From positions 8,050 through 72,049 of the IMG/VR virus record IMGVR_UViG_3300032307_000516: a stretch of 64,000 bases of DNA. One strand, given 5' to 3'. The notes under the pieces are model-generated. The model did not search any database. It was not told the DNA's origin and saw only the letters and a program-made list of their open reading frames with translations. Position 1 is the stretch's first letter; the number at the start of each line of letters is the position of its first letter. A program made the translations under genes and the position numbers. This stretch comes from a virus. Positions 3,857 through 56,427 of this stretch are shown here, piece after piece.

Positions 3857-3936
3857 GCCCTCGTGGTGGAATTGGTAGACACGCTAGACTTAGGATCTAG
3901 TGCGAAAGCGTGAGAGTTCGAGTCTCTCCGAGGGTA
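3857..3936 (+). tRNA. tRNA-Leu(TAG)
   Basis: Cloverleaf with variable arm, loop CTTAGGA. Confidence 0.95.
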
Positions 3937-3938
3937 CT

Positions 3939-4436
3939 ATGAAAGTTATATTTTTAGATTTTGATGGTGTTCTTAATCTTATACCTCAAGGACATGACTA
4001 TTACGGAGGGATTTTTCACCCTGAATTTGTCGGCAACCTAGGTAGGATTATAGAGGAAACTGGAGCAAAACTTGTGATAAGCTCTTCGTGGAGAACTATG
4101 GGATTGGAAAGACTTAGAATGATGTGGGAACATCGTTTATATCCAGGAGACATCATAGGAGTTACCCCAGATCTTAGATGGAGGACAAAAAAAGATGCTA
4201 TGGAATTAAACGAAGTCGAGTACGTTAGAGGAGATGAAATAGAGTCATGGCTAAATCTACATCCGGAGGTAACTAATTATGTTATACTTGACGATGATGA
4301 TGATATGTTACAATCACAAAGAATAAACTTTGTAAGAACATCTGATAATATTAATCATCCTGATTGCATTGATATAGGATACGGATTAACTAATATTTGT
4401 TCTAACGATGCAATTAGAATTTTAAACAGAAAATAA
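3939..4436 (+). CDS. HAD-superfamily phosphatase (HAD_SAK_2-like)
   Basis: MKVIFLDFDGVL, SSSWR, RGDEI, YVILDD motifs; start corrected to the ATG after tRNA-Leu. Confidence 0.85.
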   Translation: MKVIFLDFDGVLNLIPQGHDYYGGIFHPEFVGNLGRIIEETGAKLVISSSWRTMGLERLRMMWEHRLYPGDIIGVTPDLRWRTKKDAMELNEVEYVRGDEIESWLNLHPEVTNYVILDDDDDMLQSQRINFVRTSDNINHPDCIDIGYGLTNICSNDAIRILNRK

Positions 4437-5005
4437 TGAAAGTTATATTTTTAGATCATGATGGAGTAATTTGTCTTTCCCAGCAATTTGGTGGGCGTTA
4501 CAAAAAGCAGACTAAAGCTAGAACTAAGCTTTCTCAAAACGTGATGGATTTTCCAGTCGATGCTAGATTTGATAACTTCGATAAGAAAGCTATTAAAGTT
4601 CTAAACCTAATCTTAGAAGATACTGGAGCTGAAATAGTTGTTTCTTCTGATTGGAAGAACTGGGCAAATGTTGAAGAAATGGGCGAATATTACGAACAAC
4701 AAGGTATAATTAAAAAGCCTATTGATTTTACACCTAGAGAATACACAATGCCAGAGAAACAAGAATGGCATCCAGACTGGGATTTAGAAGCATCAAGAAC
4801 TTTAGAAATCCAAGAATGGCTAAAAGATCATCCAGAGGTTACTCATTGGGTAGCAATAGATGATTTAGATATGAGCTTTAAAGAGGTATCAAATAATAGA
4901 AGCGGTACTGGCTGGGGCTTAAAAAACTTTGTACACACCCCAAGTATCACTGAAGGGATTAAAAAAATGGGTATAAAAGAAAAAGTTTTAAAATTTTTAA
5001 AATAA
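4436..5005 (+). CDS. HAD-superfamily phosphatase (HAD_SAK_2-like), paralog
   Basis: FLDHDGV, SSDWK, WVAIDD motifs. Confidence 0.85.
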   Translation: MKVIFLDHDGVICLSQQFGGRYKKQTKARTKLSQNVMDFPVDARFDNFDKKAIKVLNLILEDTGAEIVVSSDWKNWANVEEMGEYYEQQGIIKKPIDFTPREYTMPEKQEWHPDWDLEASRTLEIQEWLKDHPEVTHWVAIDDLDMSFKEVSNNRSGTGWGLKNFVHTPSITEGIKKMGIKEKVLKFLK

Positions 5006-5088
5006 TTTCAAAAAACATTTTTTTATTTAAAAAATATATTGTACTTTTACGAAACTATTCTGGAAACAGGATATATAATTAAGAAAAA

Positions 5089-5196
5089 ATGAAAAACTGT
5101 AGTAAACATAACATCAATCGCATGAACAGTCAAATTAATGGCTGCTATCAAACGGTGGCGTTTTGGGCTAAGGGGAAAGAACCCGATCGAAGCTAA
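5089..5196 (+). CDS. leader peptide 3 (MKNCSKHNINRMNSQINGCYQTVAFWAKGKEPDRS)
   Basis: 35-codon uORF; first 30 codons use exactly the 16 amino acids whose tRNAs lie downstream. Confidence 0.88.
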   Translation: MKNCSKHNINRMNSQINGCYQTVAFWAKGKEPDRS

Positions 5197-5255
5197 TACA
5201 GAAAATCATAATTAGATATTTTGGAAAAGGCTTCGATTTAATCGAAGCCTTTTTT
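5185..5255 (+). terminator. attenuator 3: antiterminator 5185-5194 / terminator 5225-5255
   Basis: AAAAGGCTTCGAT/ATCGAAGCCTTTT hairpin plus U-tract; GATCGAAGCT pairs alternatively with GGCTTCGATT. Confidence 0.85.
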
Positions 5256-5258
5256 ATT

Positions 5259-5271
5259 TGTTCTTTGACAT
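5259..5271 (+). promoter_or_regulatory. boxA-like element
   Basis: TGTTCTTTGACAT, identical to 672-684. Confidence 0.7.
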
Positions 5272-5283
5272 ACTGGAAAAAAT

Positions 5284-5356
5284 GGTACCGTAGCTCAGTT
5301 GGTAGAGCACTAGACTGAAAATCTAGGTGTCGCCGGTTCGATTCCGGCCGGTACCA
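5284..5356 (+). tRNA. tRNA-Phe(GAA)
   Basis: Cloverleaf, loop CTGAAAA. Confidence 0.95.
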
Positions 5357-5427
5357 CAATACTAAACAAGAAATTGTCTCACTAAACTAATCATGTTTAG
5401 TATTACAAAAACAAGTTTAGTAACAAT

Positions 5428-5501
5428 GATCTCGTAGCTCAGTTGGCTAGAGCACCTCACTTTTAATGAGGGAGTCGAGGGTTCGAGCCCCTCCGGGATC
5501 A
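5428..5501 (+). tRNA. tRNA-Lys(TTT)
   Basis: Cloverleaf, loop CTTTTAA. Confidence 0.95.
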
Positions 5502-5507
5502 CTACAC

Positions 5508-5580
5508 ACGTCAGTAGCTCAATTGGTAGAGCGTTGGTCTCCAAAACCAAAGGTCGTAGGTTCGATTCCTACCTGGCGTG
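5508..5580 (+). tRNA. tRNA-Trp(CCA)
   Basis: Cloverleaf, loop CTCCAAA. Confidence 0.95.
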
Positions 5581-5586
5581 CTAAAA

Positions 5587-5659
5587 GGCTCTGTAGTTCA
5601 AGGGATTAGAATGGATCACTACGGATGATCTGATCCTGGTTCGAATCCAGGTGGAGTCT
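5587..5659 (+). tRNA. tRNA-Arg(ACG)
   Basis: Cloverleaf, loop CTACGGA. Confidence 0.9.
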
Positions 5660-5670
5660 CAAACAAATAA

Positions 5671-5742
5671 GGTCGTGTGGTCGAGTGGTTTAGGCACTAG
5701 TCTGCAAAACTAGTTATACTGGTTCAATTCCAGTCACGGCCT
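5671..5742 (+). tRNA. tRNA-Cys(GCA)
   Basis: Cloverleaf, loop CTGCAAA, U73. Confidence 0.92.
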
Positions 5743-5759
5743 CAAAAAATGTAAGAAGT

Positions 5760-5885
5760 ATGAAAATAGTTATTGAAGGAAAAATGAAATCGTCGAATCA
5801 CAGATTAAATGCGATTCCAGTTAAAATTGAAAGAAAAAATTCTCTAATCAAAAGAATCAAAAGATTGATTAATAAAGGAAAGTAA
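5760..5885 (+). CDS. small basic hypothetical protein (41 aa)
   Basis: MKIVIEGKMKSS...RLINKGK fills the spacer; stop lies inside tRNA-Ser(GCT). Confidence 0.4.
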   Translation: MKIVIEGKMKSSNHRLNAIPVKIERKNSLIKRIKRLINKGK

Positions 5886-5962
5886 TCTCAGATGGTGACG
5901 GGGCTCGCCTGCTAAGCGAAGCGTACCTTAATTGGTATTTGGTTCGATTCCAATTCTTTCCG
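5877..5962 (+). tRNA. tRNA-Ser(GCT)
   Basis: Loop CTGCTAA, long variable arm; slightly imperfect stems. Confidence 0.85.
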
Positions 5963-5968
5963 CAACAT

Positions 5969-6042
5969 TGACATATAGCTCAGTTGGTTAGAGCGTTGAT
6001 CTGATACGTCAAAGGTCGAAGGTTCGAATCCTTCTATGTCAA
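5969..6042 (+). tRNA. tRNA-Ile(GAT)
   Basis: Cloverleaf, loop CTGATAC. Confidence 0.93.
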
Positions 6043-6058
6043 CTTAAAAATTATAAAA

Positions 6059-6085
6059 ATGAAAAAAGAATTTGACAACTTGTAG
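6059..6085 (+). CDS. 8-aa uORF MKKEFDNL whose TAG lies in a hairpin
   Basis: A-rich leader, ATG...TTG TAG; CTTGTAGG/CCTACAAG hairpin abuts the ATG at 6106. Confidence 0.45.
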   Translation: MKKEFDNL

Positions 6086-6105
6086 GTTTAATTAAACCCT
6101 ACAAG

Positions 6106-6297
6106 ATGAGTAAAAACACAAACAGAGCAAAACTGAACAAAGCAATGAATGGTAGAGAACACAGAAACATTTTAAATAATGCTCTTTATCCTCCATACAG
6201 TGAATATGATCACACATGGTGGCATGGAAATTTATCCAATCACAAATGGAGATCATACAAAACCTGGAAACACAACAGAAAAACAAAATGGAAGTAA
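6106..6297 (+). CDS. small basic Trp/Lys-rich hypothetical protein
   Basis: 63-aa ORF ending WRSYKTWKHNRKTKWK. Confidence 0.65.
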   Translation: MSKNTNRAKLNKAMNGREHRNILNNALYPPYSEYDHTWWHGNLSNHKWRSYKTWKHNRKTKWK

Positions 6298-6308
6298 TTC
6301 CATTTTAC

Positions 6309-6381
6309 AGTCTCTTAGCTCAGTTGGTAGAGCGCTTGGTTTACATCCAAGATGTCGGGGGTTCGAGCCCCTCAGGGACTA
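6309..6381 (+). tRNA. tRNA-Val(TAC)
   Basis: Cloverleaf, loop TTTACAT. Confidence 0.95.
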
Positions 6382-6384
6382 CAA

Positions 6385-6537
6385 GATTAGAAGCGGTAGA
6401 TTTGGTTACTTCGCACTTTTAATGCCCGTGTCGGGGGTTCGAATCCCTCATCTAGCTCCATAGCAGATCCTAGGATTTGTGCTAGATTAGCTCAGCGGTA
6501 GAGCAGGTTCCAAACCAAATCTAAATATTCTCTAATC
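6385..6537 (+). ncRNA. scaffold RNA copy 1 enclosing a circularly permuted tRNA-Lys(TTT)
   Basis: 3' tRNA half 6413-6460 precedes 5' half 6481-6507; flanks GATTAGA/TCTAATC and AGATTTGGTT/AACCAAATCT pair. Confidence 0.85.
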
Positions 6538-6545
6538 CTAATATT

Positions 6546-6629
6546 GATTAGAAGCGGTGAAAGGGGTTACTTCTCAAAACCTTGTAAATTTTTGACCAAA
6601 AAACCACCCCGATTAAATATTCTCTAATC
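6546..6629 (+). ncRNA. scaffold RNA copy 2 without tRNA cargo
   Basis: GATTAGAAGCGGT...GGTTACTTC...TAAATATTCTCTAATC repeated, with a different inner stem GGGGT/ACCCC. Confidence 0.75.
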
Positions 6630-6635
6630 AAAACT

Positions 6636-6707
6636 GGGGATGTAGCTCAGCGGTAGAGCTCCCGACTGTTAATCGGTAGGTCGCTGGTTCGAATCCAGCC
6701 TTCCCCG
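6636..6707 (+). tRNA. tRNA-Asn(GTT)
   Basis: Cloverleaf, loop CTGTTAA. Confidence 0.93.
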
Positions 6708-6743
6708 CAATTCAGAGTGTTGAGCAATTGGTTGCTCAGCTGA
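6687..6743 (+). repeat. direct repeat copy 1 (tRNA-Asn 3' end plus truncated tRNA-Tyr 5' part)
   Basis: Near-identical to 7870-7927. Confidence 0.85.
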
Positions 6744-6780
6744 TAAAAGAATATATTATATTTAGATTCAATTTTAAGTT

Positions 6781-7716
6781 ATGACAGGATACCATATATA
6801 CTACCAAACATCAGAAGATGGAGAATATGAGCAAATAAATTATTTAGTTCAATTAGCTTCAATTTTAAATTGGAAAAAGAATTATGGCCCCATCAAATTG
6901 TATTGTAACCAAAGATTTCTAGAGTCTATATCCAAATATGGAATTGATAAAGAATATGATTTTATTGATACTGAGTATTTAGAATCAGTTCCATATAAAG
7001 ATAGTATGTCGACATTTTGGAGCTTTTGCAAAATTTATGTCGCTAAAAAGATTGTCGAAACTGAATCGGAATTTTGTATTTTAGATACTGATTTATGGAT
7101 TCAAGCGCCTGACTTATTAAGTCAAGAACATGATTTAGTTTTACATCACGCTGAAGCTTATGATCTAAATTATGATCGCAACCCATATCCAGATCCTAGA
7201 AATTGGTTAATTGAGTCAGAGATAGAAGAATATGATTGGAATACCTCTCCCGCAAATTGCGCGATATTGTATTTTAAAAATAAAAGTAAAGAGTTAATAG
7301 ATGCTTGGTATGAATTTGCAATTAAAATAGTAGAGCGTCATAAAGATAATAATACAGAACCGAATTTGCGTTGCGGTACTATTTTTATCGAGCAACGTCT
7401 ATTACCTACAATAGCAAAGAAAATGGGTATATCAATGACGGTCGTGTCTCCTTGTACTTATTTAACTTGGATACCAGCTTCATTGGCTGATGGGCGGGAA
7501 TGGAGGCCTTCATTAGATTATTCAGAACGATCTTTATATATTGGTTCTAATATTAAACATGTATGGGGAGCAAAAAAGTTTTATTCTGAAAATTGGATTC
7601 GGGAGTTAATAATTGACAATGCTATGATAGGAATTAATTTAGTTCAGAATCAAGAAAGAAAGTATTTTAAGTTATACAGTGATGTGCATGAAGTGCATCC
7701 AAAAAAATATATTTAA
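6781..7716 (+). CDS. DUF6734-like / GT-A glycosyltransferase-like protein
   Basis: GPIKLY, FWSFCKIY, hydrophobic strand plus DTD (DxD), EQ motif. Confidence 0.6.
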   Translation: MTGYHIYYQTSEDGEYEQINYLVQLASILNWKKNYGPIKLYCNQRFLESISKYGIDKEYDFIDTEYLESVPYKDSMSTFWSFCKIYVAKKIVETESEFCILDTDLWIQAPDLLSQEHDLVLHHAEAYDLNYDRNPYPDPRNWLIESEIEEYDWNTSPANCAILYFKNKSKELIDAWYEFAIKIVERHKDNNTEPNLRCGTIFIEQRLLPTIAKKMGISMTVVSPCTYLTWIPASLADGREWRPSLDYSERSLYIGSNIKHVWGAKKFYSENWIRELIIDNAMIGINLVQNQERKYFKLYSDVHEVHPKKYI

Positions 7717-7891: not shown

Positions 7892-7927
7892 CACTTCGGA
7901 GTGTTGAGCAATTGGCTGCTCAGCTGA
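7870..7927 (+). repeat. direct repeat copy 2
   Basis: Near-identical to 6687-6743. Confidence 0.85.
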
Positions 7928-7981
7928 CTGTAAATCAGCCGCCTTACGGCATTGGGGGTTCGAATCCCTCCGCTCCGACCA
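7897..7981 (+). tRNA. tRNA-Tyr(GTA), C1:G72
   Basis: Loop CTGTAAA, variable arm, encoded CCA. Confidence 0.93.
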
Positions 7982-8537: not shown

Positions 8538-9026
8538 ATGAAAGTGCTAGTATTAAATAATGACTTTACGCCTATAAGCGTTACCGATTTTGCCCGGGGA
8601 TTTAAGCTTGTATATAAAGGTAAAGCAGAAATTTTAGAGCACGATGAACAAAACCCAATTGTTACTGATCAAAGCACCTACAAAAGACCATCAGTAATTC
8701 GACTTCTAAAGTATGTTGTTTTGCCTTTCAAAAAGCTAAAACCTACAAGGGAAAATATCTTTAAAAGAGATGAGATGAAATGTATCTATTGTGATACATC
8801 AAAAAATCTCACAATAGATCACGTTTTTCCCAGATCTAGAGGTGGTGGTAACACATGGGAAAATTTAGCTACATGCTGTTCAAAATGTAACGGTAGAAAA
8901 GGAGATAGAACCCCGGAAGAAGCCGGAATGAAAATGAGACAAAAGCCATTTAAACCCGGATATGGCTATTTCATAAGGAATTTTTCCAAAGGAATAGATG
9001 TGTGGACAGCATATCTTCCAGATTAA
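8538..9026 (+). CDS. HNH endonuclease (McrA-like)
   Basis: CxYC, TIDHVFPRSRGG, WENL, CxxCN motifs. Confidence 0.9.
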   Translation: MKVLVLNNDFTPISVTDFARGFKLVYKGKAEILEHDEQNPIVTDQSTYKRPSVIRLLKYVVLPFKKLKPTRENIFKRDEMKCIYCDTSKNLTIDHVFPRSRGGGNTWENLATCCSKCNGRKGDRTPEEAGMKMRQKPFKPGYGYFIRNFSKGIDVWTAYLPD

Positions 9027-55008: not shown

Positions 55009-55098
55009 TATCGGAACTTAGTATTTTAAGCAGAGTATAATAATAGAATACTTTTTATTATTAAGTAGGAATTTCTACATTTGCTTAAAATTTGTCCA

Positions 55099-56427
55099 AT
55101 GAAAAAAGAACTCAGAATATTACTAGAGATTGAATCGTCGACCGGAAATGGATCTCAAAAAATTAAACAGGATCTTATAAAGAATAACTATTCACCAATC
55201 CTTGAATATTTTCTAAAAGTTGCATTAGATCCATTCCTTACTACGAAGTTACATAAACTAGAAGTAATAGAGGAATCACCATATTTAGTTGGAGATGATT
55301 ATAATCCATTCGATAAATTCAAAGATCTAACATCTAGGCTTTTTATAGCCCCAGCTCCCAACGATAAGTTTAGGGAAGAAGCATTCGAATTAGTAAATTG
55401 TGTAGATCTTTCGTTTGATGAAAGAAAGATCCTAGGAAAAATCCTAACTAAAAGATTAAATATTGGTATAGGTGCTAAGCTAATCAATAAGGCTTTTGGT
55501 AAAGAAGTTATACCAGATCCTAGTCTAATGCTAGCACAGGATGACGAAGACGAAATAAAAAAATGGAGTTCAATCGTGTGTGAAGAAAAATATGATGGAG
55601 TTAGAGTTATCGCATTTGTTTCTGGTAAAGAAGTTAAGTTCTACACAAGAGCATTTAACGAGATTCCTAATCACTATTTAGAAAAAATAGCAGGTGAATG
55701 TTTAGGAATGATCAAAAATTCTCAATTACAAGGAGATTGGTTTTTTGATGGAGAACTTACTGATCTAGATAGAAAGAGTGTATCTGGAAAAGTTAATCAG
55801 ATGCTAAAAGGGAAACCTATGAATTCCATAGGTGACGAACTTATATTTAATGTATTTGATCTGGAAGATGCAGATACTCTTAAAACAGGCAAGGGTATAA
55901 TTCCGTTTGATATTAGAAGACAATCCCTAGAGGGTGTTTTTAGCACGTATACGACATCTTCGGTCACATTGGCAGATTCTTTCTTAACAAAAGAAAAAGA
56001 AGACATATACGCTTATTATAATAAAATAGTAGCAAATGGAGGAGAGGGAGTTATTCTTAAAAATCCCGATCACATTTACGAATGTAAAAGATCTAAGAAT
56101 TGGATTAAATTAAAAGAAGTAAACGAGTGTGATCTTATAATTACTGGTTGGTATCCAGGTGAGGGAAAGAGAGAAGGATTTATAGGTGGATTTATTTGTG
56201 AAGATAGATCGGGAACCCTTAAAGTTAAAATTGGATCTGGGTTTACCGACCAAGATTTAAAAGAATTAAGTGAAACCCCAGATTCACACGTGAATAAAAT
56301 ATGTTCAGTACAGTATAATGTAATAATCAGTGACAAGAACGGAAACTGGTCACTATTTTTACCTAGATTTGTAGAGATAAGAAACGATAAAGATTTTGCA
56401 GACGATTTAAAAGAAAAATGTAAATGA
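55099..56427 (+). CDS. ATP-dependent DNA ligase
   Basis: KYDGVR, DGEL, EGVILK, WIKLK, LFLPRF. Confidence 0.93.
   Translation: MKKELRILLEIESSTGNGSQKIKQDLIKNNYSPILEYFLKVALDPFLTTKLHKLEVIEESPYLVGDDYNPFDKFKDLTSRLFIAPAPNDKFREEAFELVNCVDLSFDERKILGKILTKRLNIGIGAKLINKAFGKEVIPDPSLMLAQDDEDEIKKWSSIVCEEKYDGVRVIAFVSGKEVKFYTRAFNEIPNHYLEKIAGECLGMIKNSQLQGDWFFDGELTDLDRKSVSGKVNQMLKGKPMNSIGDELIFNVFDLEDADTLKTGKGIIPFDIRRQSLEGVFSTYTTSSVTLADSFLTKEKEDIYAYYNKIVANGGEGVILKNPDHIYECKRSKNWIKLKEVNECDLIITGWYPGEGKREGFIGGFICEDRSGTLKVKIGSGFTDQDLKELSETPDSHVNKICSVQYNVIISDKNGNWSLFLPRFVEIRNDKDFADDLKEKCK

Follow-up and report, generated by a model that had tools for sequence, protein, structure and literature searches.

Within the first 8.5 kb of a 64,000-nucleotide stretch of viral DNA (the window; bases 8050-72049 of the 72-kb IMG/VR record IMGVR_UViG_3300032307_000516, which is about 25% complete) there are 26 tRNA genes, and inside this array lies a segment, 6385-6537, in which the parts of a tRNA-Lys(UUU)-like sequence stand in permuted order between flanks that can pair with each other. 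An earlier interpretation made from the letters alone, here called the sequence-only reading, took the segment for a circularly permuted tRNA-Lys and offered three roles for it: a backup tRNA dependent on ligation or splicing, a tRNA in two pieces, or a Y-RNA-like decoy for tRNA-Lys nucleases. The question raised by the locus is whether it encodes a tRNA at all. We argue that it very probably does not, and that RNA 6385-6537 is most likely a Y RNA of the YrlA class; taken as a whole, the best explanation, which we hold with almost the same confidence, is an RNA of this class bound by a phage Ro60 protein and carrying a tRNA-mimic module. The kind is already known, as the phage YrlA-type Y RNAs with their resemblance to permuted tRNAs, and the present RNA belongs to a lineage outside Rfam that is organized in arrays with exchangeable cargo. 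Coordinates are those of the window unless a locus handle is given.

Conservation and structure of the RNA

RNA 6385-6537 is a real, conserved, structured RNA. A covariance model (R1), built from the window sequence alone with a hand-written structure, has 108 matches at E <= 1 in 55 sources (957 kb), all of them on the TROVE strand of their locus, and 28 full-length relatives at E <= 1e-6 in 19 sources, including Bacillus phage G (88.8 bits), Caulobacter phage CcrColossus, Arthrobacter phage Atuin, and Gordonia phage Rabbitrun. In the alignment of these 28 relatives 95.1% of cells pair, compared with 57.3% after shuffling (0 of 500 shuffles reach the observed value) and 35-45% with slid partners, and all eight helices have pairs that are changed on both sides. 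Every pair changes on both sides in the outer closing stem (helix 1, 7/7 pairs; 93.9% of cells pair), the second stem (helix 2, 9/9; 92.5%), the 3-bp hairpin (helix 4, 3/3; 95.7%) and the acceptor (helix 7, 7/7; 96.8%); all cells pair in the T arm (helix 6) and the D arm (helix 8), and 96.3% do so in the 2-bp junction helix (helix 5). The hairpin and the junction helix have 4-5 pair types each; the first junction pair is CG in 11 relatives, AU in 8, GC in 4, UA in 2, and GU in 1, and the second is GC in 18, CG in 5, UA in 2, and UG in 1. Alignments made with MAFFT misplaced the variable parts and were replaced by fixed-offset counts from the T and D arms and by the single-sequence covariance model.

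The elements and coordinates of the permuted tRNA given in the sequence-only reading agree with a direct reading of the sequence, and the pairing of its flanks is borne out by the two outer stems (Table 1), which RNAfold predicts together with the T, acceptor, and D arms (minimum free energy -47.4 kcal/mol, z = -3.05); none of 200 shuffles folds as well. The enclosed module follows the YrlA order, with a T arm, a loop-closed acceptor-like stem, and a D arm, and the tRNA elbow nucleotides U8, A14, the D-loop GG, the T-loop UUCGA, and the final C of the variable loop are all readable. The YUAY sequence typical of YrlA 5' of the T arm is present as UUAC at 6406-6409, inside the conserved GUUACUUC motif. 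In our structural model the Ro60-type stem would leave the tRNA-like module via a three-way junction at tRNA position 28/29.

The anticodon-arm mimic

The unusual feature of this RNA is that the small hairpin and the covarying 2-bp helix together are, by their sequence, a canonical anticodon arm with 5 bp, a 7-nt loop, and a 5-nt variable loop. A fixed-offset test that avoids alignment bias was used to look for a perfect 5-bp composite stem in 24 distinct relatives, the stem being composed of the bases after position 26 and of a hairpin strand placed L bases 5' to the five bases in front of a variable loop V bases long. At V = 5 and L = 7 such a stem is found in 14 of the 24 relatives (13 if the hairpin has to contribute 2 bp or more), compared with 0-4 relatives in each of the other cells of the 5 x 8 V/L grid, and 2000 shuffles of the test gave a mean of 0.73 and a maximum of 5. 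A U at loop position 2 and a purine at position 6 are marks of anticodon loops, and both are present in all 13 canonical relatives, 8 of which also have a pyrimidine at position 1; the loops include CUUUUAA and CUGUUAA (three relatives each), CUUGAAA, AUUGAAA, AUUAUAA, and AUGUAAA. Among the 28 R1 relatives 25 were parsed, a few of them wrongly, and 18 of the 25, including phage G, CcrColossus, and Rabbitrun, have the canonical arm; some other relatives have a continuous stem, as in Salmonella. Two further permuted Y RNAs (L018:15688-15829 and L046:18045-18185) have a 5-bp arm with a 7-nt loop, CUCAUAA, after the D arm, and the break in these RNAs is therefore in the variable loop and not in the anticodon stem.

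We found no description of an anticodon-arm mimic in YrlA-type RNAs in the literature searched, although the supplementary structures of Chen 2014 may show the hairpin in phage RNAs, and its retention in a YrlA-type phage RNA appears to be previously undescribed. The contrast with YrlA that had been drawn earlier, by which this RNA retains both anticodon and CCA, holds for the anticodon arm as a conserved feature of the family; an encoded CCA is present only in a minority of relatives.

A scaffold shared by RNAs next to TROVE genes

The flanks of RNA 6385-6537 form a scaffold composed of a closing stem, a conserved internal loop (GA/AGCGG opposite AUAUUC/UC), a second stem, and the GUUACUUC motif; the last two bases, GA, of the 5' arm of the closing stem open the conserved GA/AGCGG motif. 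A strict scan for this scaffold (the 5' motif, then NWTACWTC, a 7-nt closing stem, and [TA]C just before the 3' arm) was run on 49 TROVE loci (896 kb), some of which are near-duplicates, so that the 46 loci counted below are not 46 independent cases. The scan finds 120 scaffolds on the TROVE strand and two on the opposite strand, compared with 11 on both strands together in shuffled loci. Where at least 700 nt of upstream sequence is available (46 loci), the TROVE gene is preceded by a scaffold within 700 nt in 32 loci and followed by one within 700 nt in six more, which makes 38 with a scaffold on either side and leaves eight with none by the strict rule. Scaffolds also adjoin the TROVE genes of distant proteins (23-37% identity). 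Across 104 distinct scaffolds the 5' consensus is nnnnnGA/AGCGG, with NGAAG in 65 and CGAAG in 22, and conservation extends to positions that are free in the scan, with G in 98 and T in 85 scaffolds in the GUUACUUC motif, and A in 78, T in 99, and T in 96 in the 3' consensus, AnTATTC/TC. In sequence the GA/AGCGG loop motif resembles the GNCGAAN0-1G that is reported by Chen 2014 (PMC4201824) for the Ro60-binding part of YrlA and YrlB, together with a YUAY conserved in YrlA.

A gene for Ro60 is present in the same genome, as the sequence-only reading had suggested might be looked for: a 548-aa TROVE/Ro60 open reading frame (ORF; G000:C1:5721-7367) lies upstream on the same strand, with its stop codon 7,067 nt from RNA 6385-6537. 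Its Pfam TROVE match scores 38.3 bits (cut-off 23; E 1.2e-9), and over residues 115-397 there is a match, at E 8.6e-11, to the Ro60 of Thermus phage phiLo, for which structures have been solved (9KOP, 9L5Y). Two scaffolds of the same genome are found 70-470 nt upstream of this gene, at L057:5255-5478 and 5578-5651, and the RNAs directly upstream of it have no match in Rfam. We note that L057:5255-5478 has counterparts in L012-L018, each a 210-240-nt RNA with the same scaffold directly upstream of TROVE. Bacillus phage G is the nearest cultured relative (its gp540 is 53.5% identical to the TROVE protein over 95% of the protein), and phage G has six scaffolds on the TROVE strand and none on the opposite strand, four of them in the unannotated 1 kb upstream of gp540. 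In the cultured phages Atuin (L172), Rabbitrun (L173), GiJojo (L175), and G (L169) the annotated Ro-like or TROVE gene is located in, or at the edge of, a tRNA array, and the unannotated gaps beside these genes contain matches to model R1. More widely, a scan of IMG/VR with a 15-base motif returned at least 113 stretches, mostly chance matches; the strict scaffold is present in 24 of 79 stretches examined (L058-L136), and among the matches listed a TROVE gene lies within the stretch in 9 of the 24.

The cargo of the scaffold is variable. In 102 distinct scaffolds it is a permuted tRNA-like module in 14, a normal-order tRNA callable by ARAGORN in 12, another T arm in 3, a short segment without a T arm in 52, and a long segment without a T arm in 21. 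The scaffold-enclosed tRNAs in normal order include L018:15935-16067, L036:11673-11803, L039:1802-1924, and nine others, among them a tRNA-Pro (66.2 bits on the Rfam tRNA model) and one with anticodon tta, and certain annotated phage tRNAs may be cargo of Y-RNA scaffolds. Directly after RNA 6385-6537 is a sister RNA that shares its first 13 and last 16 nt identically, scores 32.4 bits on model R1, and is kept between tRNA-Val and tRNA-Asn in L002-L008 (Table 1).

Table 1. Elements of RNA 6385-6537 and of the adjacent sister RNA, in window coordinates.
Feature	Start	End	Strand	Remarks
Outer closing stem, 5' arm	6385	6391	+	pairs with 6531-6537; pair probabilities 0.80-0.98
Internal loop, 5' side, AGCGGU	6392	6397	+	putative Ro60-binding motif, akin to published GNCGAAN0-1G
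Second stem, 5' arm	6398	6407	+	pairs with 6513-6522; pair probabilities 0.89-1.0
Conserved GUUACUUC motif	6405	6412	+	last 5 nt are the single-stranded 5' linker of the three-way junction
Anticodon-arm mimic, 3-bp hairpin	6413	6425	+	7-nt loop CUUUUAA at 6416-6422
Junction helix, 5' side, CC	6426	6427	+	pairs with GG 6506-6507; tRNA positions 42-43 with 27-28
Variable loop, 5 nt, ending in C	6428	6432	+	C is a possible Levitt-pair partner of G6495
T arm, 5 bp, loop UUCGAAU	6433	6449	+	aligned by YrlA model
Acceptor stem, 3' strand	6450	6456	+	7/7 pairing with 6481-6487
Encoded U-CCA	6457	6460	+	directly after acceptor 3' strand
Linker closing acceptor stem, 20 nt	6461	6480	+	6-bp hairpin 6464-6479; length and sequence vary among relatives
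Acceptor stem, 5' strand	6481	6487	+	predicted RNase P site between 6480 and 6481
U8-A9, D arm, N26 (A6505)	6488	6505	+	TA at 6488-6489; D arm 6490-6504, loop AGCGGUA
Junction helix, 3' side, GG	6506	6507	+	partner of CC 6426-6427
3' linker of three-way junction	6508	6512	+	single-stranded; variable among relatives
Second stem, 3' arm	6513	6522	+	partner of 6398-6407
Internal loop, 3' side, AAAUAUUC	6523	6530	+	conserved
Outer closing stem, 3' arm	6531	6537	+	partner of 6385-6391
Sister RNA (YrlB-like)	6546	6629	+	same scaffold; plain hairpin replaces tRNA-like module

Comparison with known RNAs

YrlA is the best non-tRNA match to RNA 6385-6537 in Rfam, and the part aligned to its model comprises the junction helix, T arm, closed acceptor, and D arm. 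As in bacterial YrlA (RF02553), the ends pair into a Ro60-type module, the T arm, closed acceptor, and D arm are permuted, YUAY is present, and the RNA is on the strand of the Ro60 gene; unlike bacterial YrlA, it has a UUAGAAG 5' motif and is located inside a tRNA array, 7 kb from that gene. Binding by Ro60/Rsr and tRNA modifications (pseudouridine 55 and dihydrouridine) are further hallmarks of the YrlA class. YrlA RNAs are described in a preprint (Wang 2018; 10.1101/312249) as resembling circularly permuted tRNAs, and as having no anticodon loop and an anticodon stem kinked at U23-A24. In Salmonella YrlA, for which the tRNA-like domain has been solved (S. Typhimurium), the anticodon stem is reported to run into the Ro60 module, whereas here a hairpin completes an anticodon arm of 5 bp and 7 nt; the Rfam YrlA consensus has a bulge, CUA, directly before a 4-bp helix, and it is at this place that the hairpin of RNA 6385-6537 is inserted. 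The RNA is also reminiscent of M. smegmatis YrlA as described, with a 7-bp acceptor and predicted products that would be two base-paired halves, one of them CCA-ended, but it encodes the whole CCA, and the M. smegmatis RNA is placed directly upstream of rsr.

Among phage RNAs, that of phage G (NC_023719 405193-405348; L169:3723-3878), a cultured jumbo phage that infects Bacillus megaterium, shares the scaffold motifs and the mimic of 3 + 2 bp with a 7-nt loop, encodes A-CCA, and differs in its loop, AUUAUGA, which is not of Lys type; Y-RNA-like RNAs in phage G are attributed to Chen 2014 by a later paper (PMC12135203). Thermus phage phiLo has, according to its description (9KOP, 9L5Y), a phage Ro60 with Y-like RNAs, Yrl1 and Yrl2, encoded upstream of the Ro60 gene and a 5'-3' stem flanking an internal loop with a CGAA-type motif, comparable to the scaffold here; unlike RNA 6385-6537, they have no tRNA-like module in that description. 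Yrn1 of D. radiodurans is a Y RNA reported to have a T arm and a possible anticodon arm, although in the opposite orientation, with a stem-loop between the D and T elements at the anticodon position, a 6-nt loop, and an incomplete D arm. The permuted tRNA genes of Cyanidioschyzon merolae and Thermofilum likewise have the 3' half first, an acceptor closed as a loop, and ends that pair, but those are processed by splicing endonuclease and ligase via a circle, whereas here the flanks are a conserved Ro60-type scaffold, and neither the junction, in contigs of four runs, nor such enzymes, in the 72-kb record, were seen.

tRNA calling, CCA, and transcripts

When 6481-6507 is joined in silico to 6413-6460, ARAGORN calls a 75-nt tRNA-Lys(ttt), which agrees with the sequence-only reading in its length and perfect acceptor (7/7). 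In native order ARAGORN calls no tRNA gene in 6385-6537, and the Rfam tRNA model (RF00005) has no match across it at E <= 10. Permuted forms of 24 relatives are called as tRNAs in 24/24 cases, but so are 21-24 of 24 mis-joined controls, and the call does not discriminate. The normal Lys(TTT) gene noted earlier at 5428 is present as an ordinary tRNA-Lys(ttt) at 5428-5502; the joined 75-mer is identical to it at 52/75 positions and to tRNA-Thr at 53/75, other tRNAs are as close or closer, and the joined form is thus not a recent copy of the phage's own tRNA-Lys. A group I or permuted intron, a self-cleaving ribozyme, a GOLLD/ROOL-type RNA, and a piece of tmRNA were also considered, none with Rfam support.

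The sequence NCCA directly follows the 7-bp acceptor in the window and three others (4 of 24 relatives, with about 1/64 expected by chance) and is also encoded in phage G and CcrColossus. In the closest homologue (L007/L015) CCA is absent and the acceptor, of 8 bp, is rich in G-U pairs, and C6459 reads T, giving CTA for CCA, in contigs of RNA runs X14 and X20. Chen 2014 (PMC4201824) report that RNase P cleaves M. smegmatis YrlA, in cells as well as in vitro, and that this RNA gains CCA, which they ascribe to a 7-bp stem. RNA 6385-6537 likewise has a 7-bp acceptor (7/7 pairs), here with an encoded U-CCA, and by analogy RNase P cleavage with a CCA-ended half may reasonably be inferred.

Besides the window, RNA 6385-6537 occurs in one IMG/VR contig (L007, the same as L015) and in contigs of X14, X20, and X16. 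A 319-nt contig of the RNA library X14 spans 6377-6699 and a 161-nt contig of X20, a metatranscriptome from a different study, spans 6416-6542, both in genomic order; 6037-6297 and 6704-6800 have no cover in the RNA runs. The junction of 6507 to 6413, for which RNA sequencing had been proposed as a check, is found in no contig of four runs, although contigs cannot prove its absence. Joints from 6504-6507 to 6430-6432 were rejected as ligation because 19-20 other letters stand between the two sides, hence they are ordinary tRNAs of other organisms, and a joint from 6384 to 6546 in X19 was rejected as splicing because it comes from a relative without RNA 6385-6537.

Alternative explanations

If the segment were a true circularly permuted tRNA-Lys gene, the flanking stem would be cut, 6507 ligated to 6413 to give a circle, and the circle opened at the acceptor, as in C. 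merolae. Agreement with such a gene comes from the tRNA call on the joined form, the perfect acceptor, and the encoded CCA, yet we give this account next to no credence: no junction contig was found in the four runs (with the limit of contigs just stated), CCA is missing in the nearest homologue and replaced by CTA in two RNA-run contigs, the break falls inside the anticodon stem with conserved single-stranded linkers rather than in a bulge-helix-bulge, and 73 of the 102 distinct scaffold copies carry cargo that is not a tRNA. A normal tRNA-Lys(ttt) exists in the array, and the joined form is no closer to that gene than to other tRNAs. RtcB, which the sequence-only reading had named as a gene to look for, was not found in the 72-kb record (about 25% complete). 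The ligation- or splicing-dependent backup tRNA is not supported by the evidence from the junction, the CCA, the CTA contigs, and the scaffold cargo. A tRNA that works in two pieces, released by an RNase P cut and 3' trimming, charged as a nicked molecule by lysyl-tRNA synthetase, and used on the ribosome, is highly improbable. A 7-bp acceptor with an encoded U-CCA, and an NCCA in relatives, phage G, and CcrColossus above the chance level, are what it would predict, but a Ro60-type stem of about 17 bp projecting from the middle of the anticodon stem would probably not fit the decoding sites of the ribosome, CCA is lost in the closest relatives, and the loops of several relatives give no sensible anticodon (e.g. 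AUC). Bacterial tRNA-Lys has A73 as its discriminator, and the corresponding base of RNA 6385-6537 is U. What may survive of a two-piece tRNA is the sense in which M. smegmatis YrlA is reported to be cut by RNase P and to gain CCA.

The scaffold could instead be a structure that processes or stabilizes the transcript of the tRNA array, such as a site for RNase III or RNase E or a protective clamp, with the tRNA-like sequence inside it incidental. The position of the RNA between tRNA genes and the 12 of 102 distinct scaffolds that enclose an ordinary tRNA are in keeping with this; however, scaffolds adjoin TROVE genes on the same strand in 38 of 46 loci, and down to 23-37% TROVE identity, the loop motif resembles the published Ro60-binding motif, and the architecture fits YrlA and YrlB, so that we regard a role in processing as very unlikely. 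That the segment is a non-functional relic of rearrangement in a fluid array seems scarcely conceivable to us. The array is indeed rearranging, as part of tRNA-Tyr is repeated at 6711-6743 and some inserts are absent from relatives, and the RNA is absent from most close relatives; set against this, eight helices covary in 28 relatives from several phage groups, the geometry of the anticodon arm is conserved, and scaffolds have a strand bias of 120:2.

Several observations weigh against RNA 6385-6537 as a Ro60-bound YrlA-class RNA with an anticodon-arm mimic. The Rfam search including YrlA that had been suggested returns YrlA as the best non-tRNA match, as noted above, but at 28.3 bits, under the gathering score of 69, and over model positions 23-86 only; the phage G RNA scores 36.2 bits on the same model, also below the gathering score, and in both RNAs the alignment is confined to the tRNA-like core. 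The CcrColossus, Rabbitrun, Atuin, and GiJojo loci have no match to the YrlA model at the gathering score, so that phage members as a group seem to fall under the curated threshold. Nearly all best YrlA matches are reported to be within 4 kb of a Ro60 gene and on the same strand (Chen 2014, PMC4201824), a distance that RNA 6385-6537, at 7 kb from TROVE, exceeds, and its 5' motif is UUAGAAG, not GNCGAAG. The anticodon-type hairpin and the CC/GG pairs are absent from the RNAfold prediction (probabilities 0.14-0.16 and 0.003), and the structure with the three-way junction is at -38.4 kcal/mol, compared with a minimum of -46.4 kcal/mol, with pair probabilities <= 0.16. The 28-relative alignment was fitted to the structure of the model itself, and its counts lean that way. 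Contigs cannot show the ends, strand, level, or absence of an RNA, and DNA may contaminate RNA libraries. Of 16 further whole records with scaffold-like matches, TROVE was found in one; 11 of the 16 are <=25% complete and several of the matches are probably due to chance, and one record that is 93% complete has no TROVE. RNA 6385-6537 is missing from most close relatives (L002-L006, L008, L017, and an X19 contig), in which only the short sister RNA is found between tRNA-Val and tRNA-Asn, and it is therefore dispensable.

Genome context

By its PHROGs matches, which include a tail sheath, a large terminase, a UvsX-like recombinase, and a DnaB-like helicase, the virus is a large myovirus, and most of the runs that contain stretches of the window are freshwater metagenomes. 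Two tandem ORFs in the tRNA array, 3900-4436 and 4436-5005, match PF18143 (HAD_SAK_2, RNA repair) at E 8e-27 and 9e-23, and the surroundings of RNA 6385-6537, with these two ORFs and 26 tRNA genes, point to tRNA and RNA repair. An ORF at 55081-56427 has a weak match to PF09414 (RNA_ligase) at 55573-56115 (27.9 bits, cut-off 27), an HNH endonuclease ORF (8538-9026) directly follows the array, and no CCA-adding enzyme was found in the 72-kb record, about 25% complete as it is. A class-II tRNA-like gene at 5876-5962 with anticodon loop GCU (Ser) and a long variable arm was missed by ARAGORN; it scores 38.3 bits on the Rfam tRNA-Sec model, under the gathering score of 47. A scan of 5000-7000 for promoters and terminators gave nothing telling beside the RNA.

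The segment 6044-6308, with an ORF (6106-6297; 63 aa, rich in K, N, W, and H, with no Pfam match), is missing in relatives' contigs from four runs, where 6035 is joined to 6316 through 29-37 letters of other sequence. Directly after tRNA-Asn, 6711-6743 repeats the 5' half of tRNA-Tyr (31/33) and stands at the edge of an insert of roughly 1.15 kb. The insert includes an ORF (6781-7716) with a weak DUF6734 match and a second tRNA-Ser(tga), and lies ahead of the full tRNA-Tyr at 7897-7981.

Discussion

We favor the interpretation of RNA 6385-6537 as a Ro60-bound YrlA-class RNA, and on this interpretation it would be transcribed together with the tRNA array and its scaffold, judging from the loop motif, would be bound by the phage Ro60. 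The module would take the L-shape of a tRNA and be recognized by tRNA-recognizing enzymes, of which RNase P would probably cut between 6480 and 6481, as in M. smegmatis YrlA; this site is proposed because the acceptor stem is 7 bp. Cleavage there would yield two halves held by base pairing, of which one would end close to the encoded CCA, and in the resulting ribonucleoprotein a partner that binds tRNA would be offered a body and an anticodon arm resembling those of tRNA-Lys(UUU). By analogy it could act as a tether, as the Ro60-Y RNA-PNPase particle does, or as a decoy or competitive inhibitor of anticodon-loop nucleases or enzymes. Nucleases such as PrrC and PARIS AriB target tRNA-Lys.

The most likely role is that of a tether or decoy in a conflict over tRNA, in which we infer the decoy step; for RNA 6385-6537 in particular a decoy role is possible but doubtful. 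Of the Y-RNA-like decoy proposed in the sequence-only reading, the Y-RNA-like mimic is favored and a TROVE gene is present; tRNA-Lys nucleases would be a putative target. Ro60 and Y RNA are reported to tether PNPase (PMC4201824; for phiLo, PMC12135203), YrlA has been suggested as a possible competitive inhibitor of an anticodon nuclease (Hughes 2020, PMC7790460), and the TROVE proteins of jumbo phages have been grouped with systems of RNA repair (Iyer 2021, PMC7824862). In phage Bas63 a Ro60-like protein, gp130, is reported to counter the Ppl defense, and lies upstream of tRNA genes, some of which are suspected to be Y RNAs (PMC11482910); in a Listeria phage, abundant RNAs described as possibly Y RNAs lie up to 2 kb upstream of the gene for an Rsr-like protein (PMC12282133).

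A broader proposal, which we think unlikely as it stands, is that the Y RNAs of this phage clade, of phage G, of CcrColossus, and of some actinophages are complete tRNA mimics, and that each phage has an anticodon-specific panel of them tethered to Ro60. Chen 2014 (PMC4201824), in the passage on this element, name the stem-loop upstream of the T arm 'V' and compare it with the variable arm; under the broader proposal 'V' would be the anticodon arm, shown from the three-way junction. The loops would be tRNA-specific, for example Lys UUU, Asn GUU, Ser UGA, and Tyr GUA, some paralogues would hold an ordinary tRNA whole inside the Ro60 scaffold, and some mimics would be opened by RNase P, exposing CCA. 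Such mimics would be decoys, competitive inhibitors, or sensors for anticodon-loop nucleases of the host or other anticodon-reading enzymes.

As a practical point, the phage members tested here are missed by the curated YrlA model. The role of bacterial and phage Ro60-Y RNA particles is still largely open, and a canonical anticodon arm narrows the search: the mimic family keeps this arm, with loops of different tRNA types in different paralogues, so the partner should be one that reads the anticodon arm. Bacillus phage G is a cultured system with a testable panel of such RNAs.

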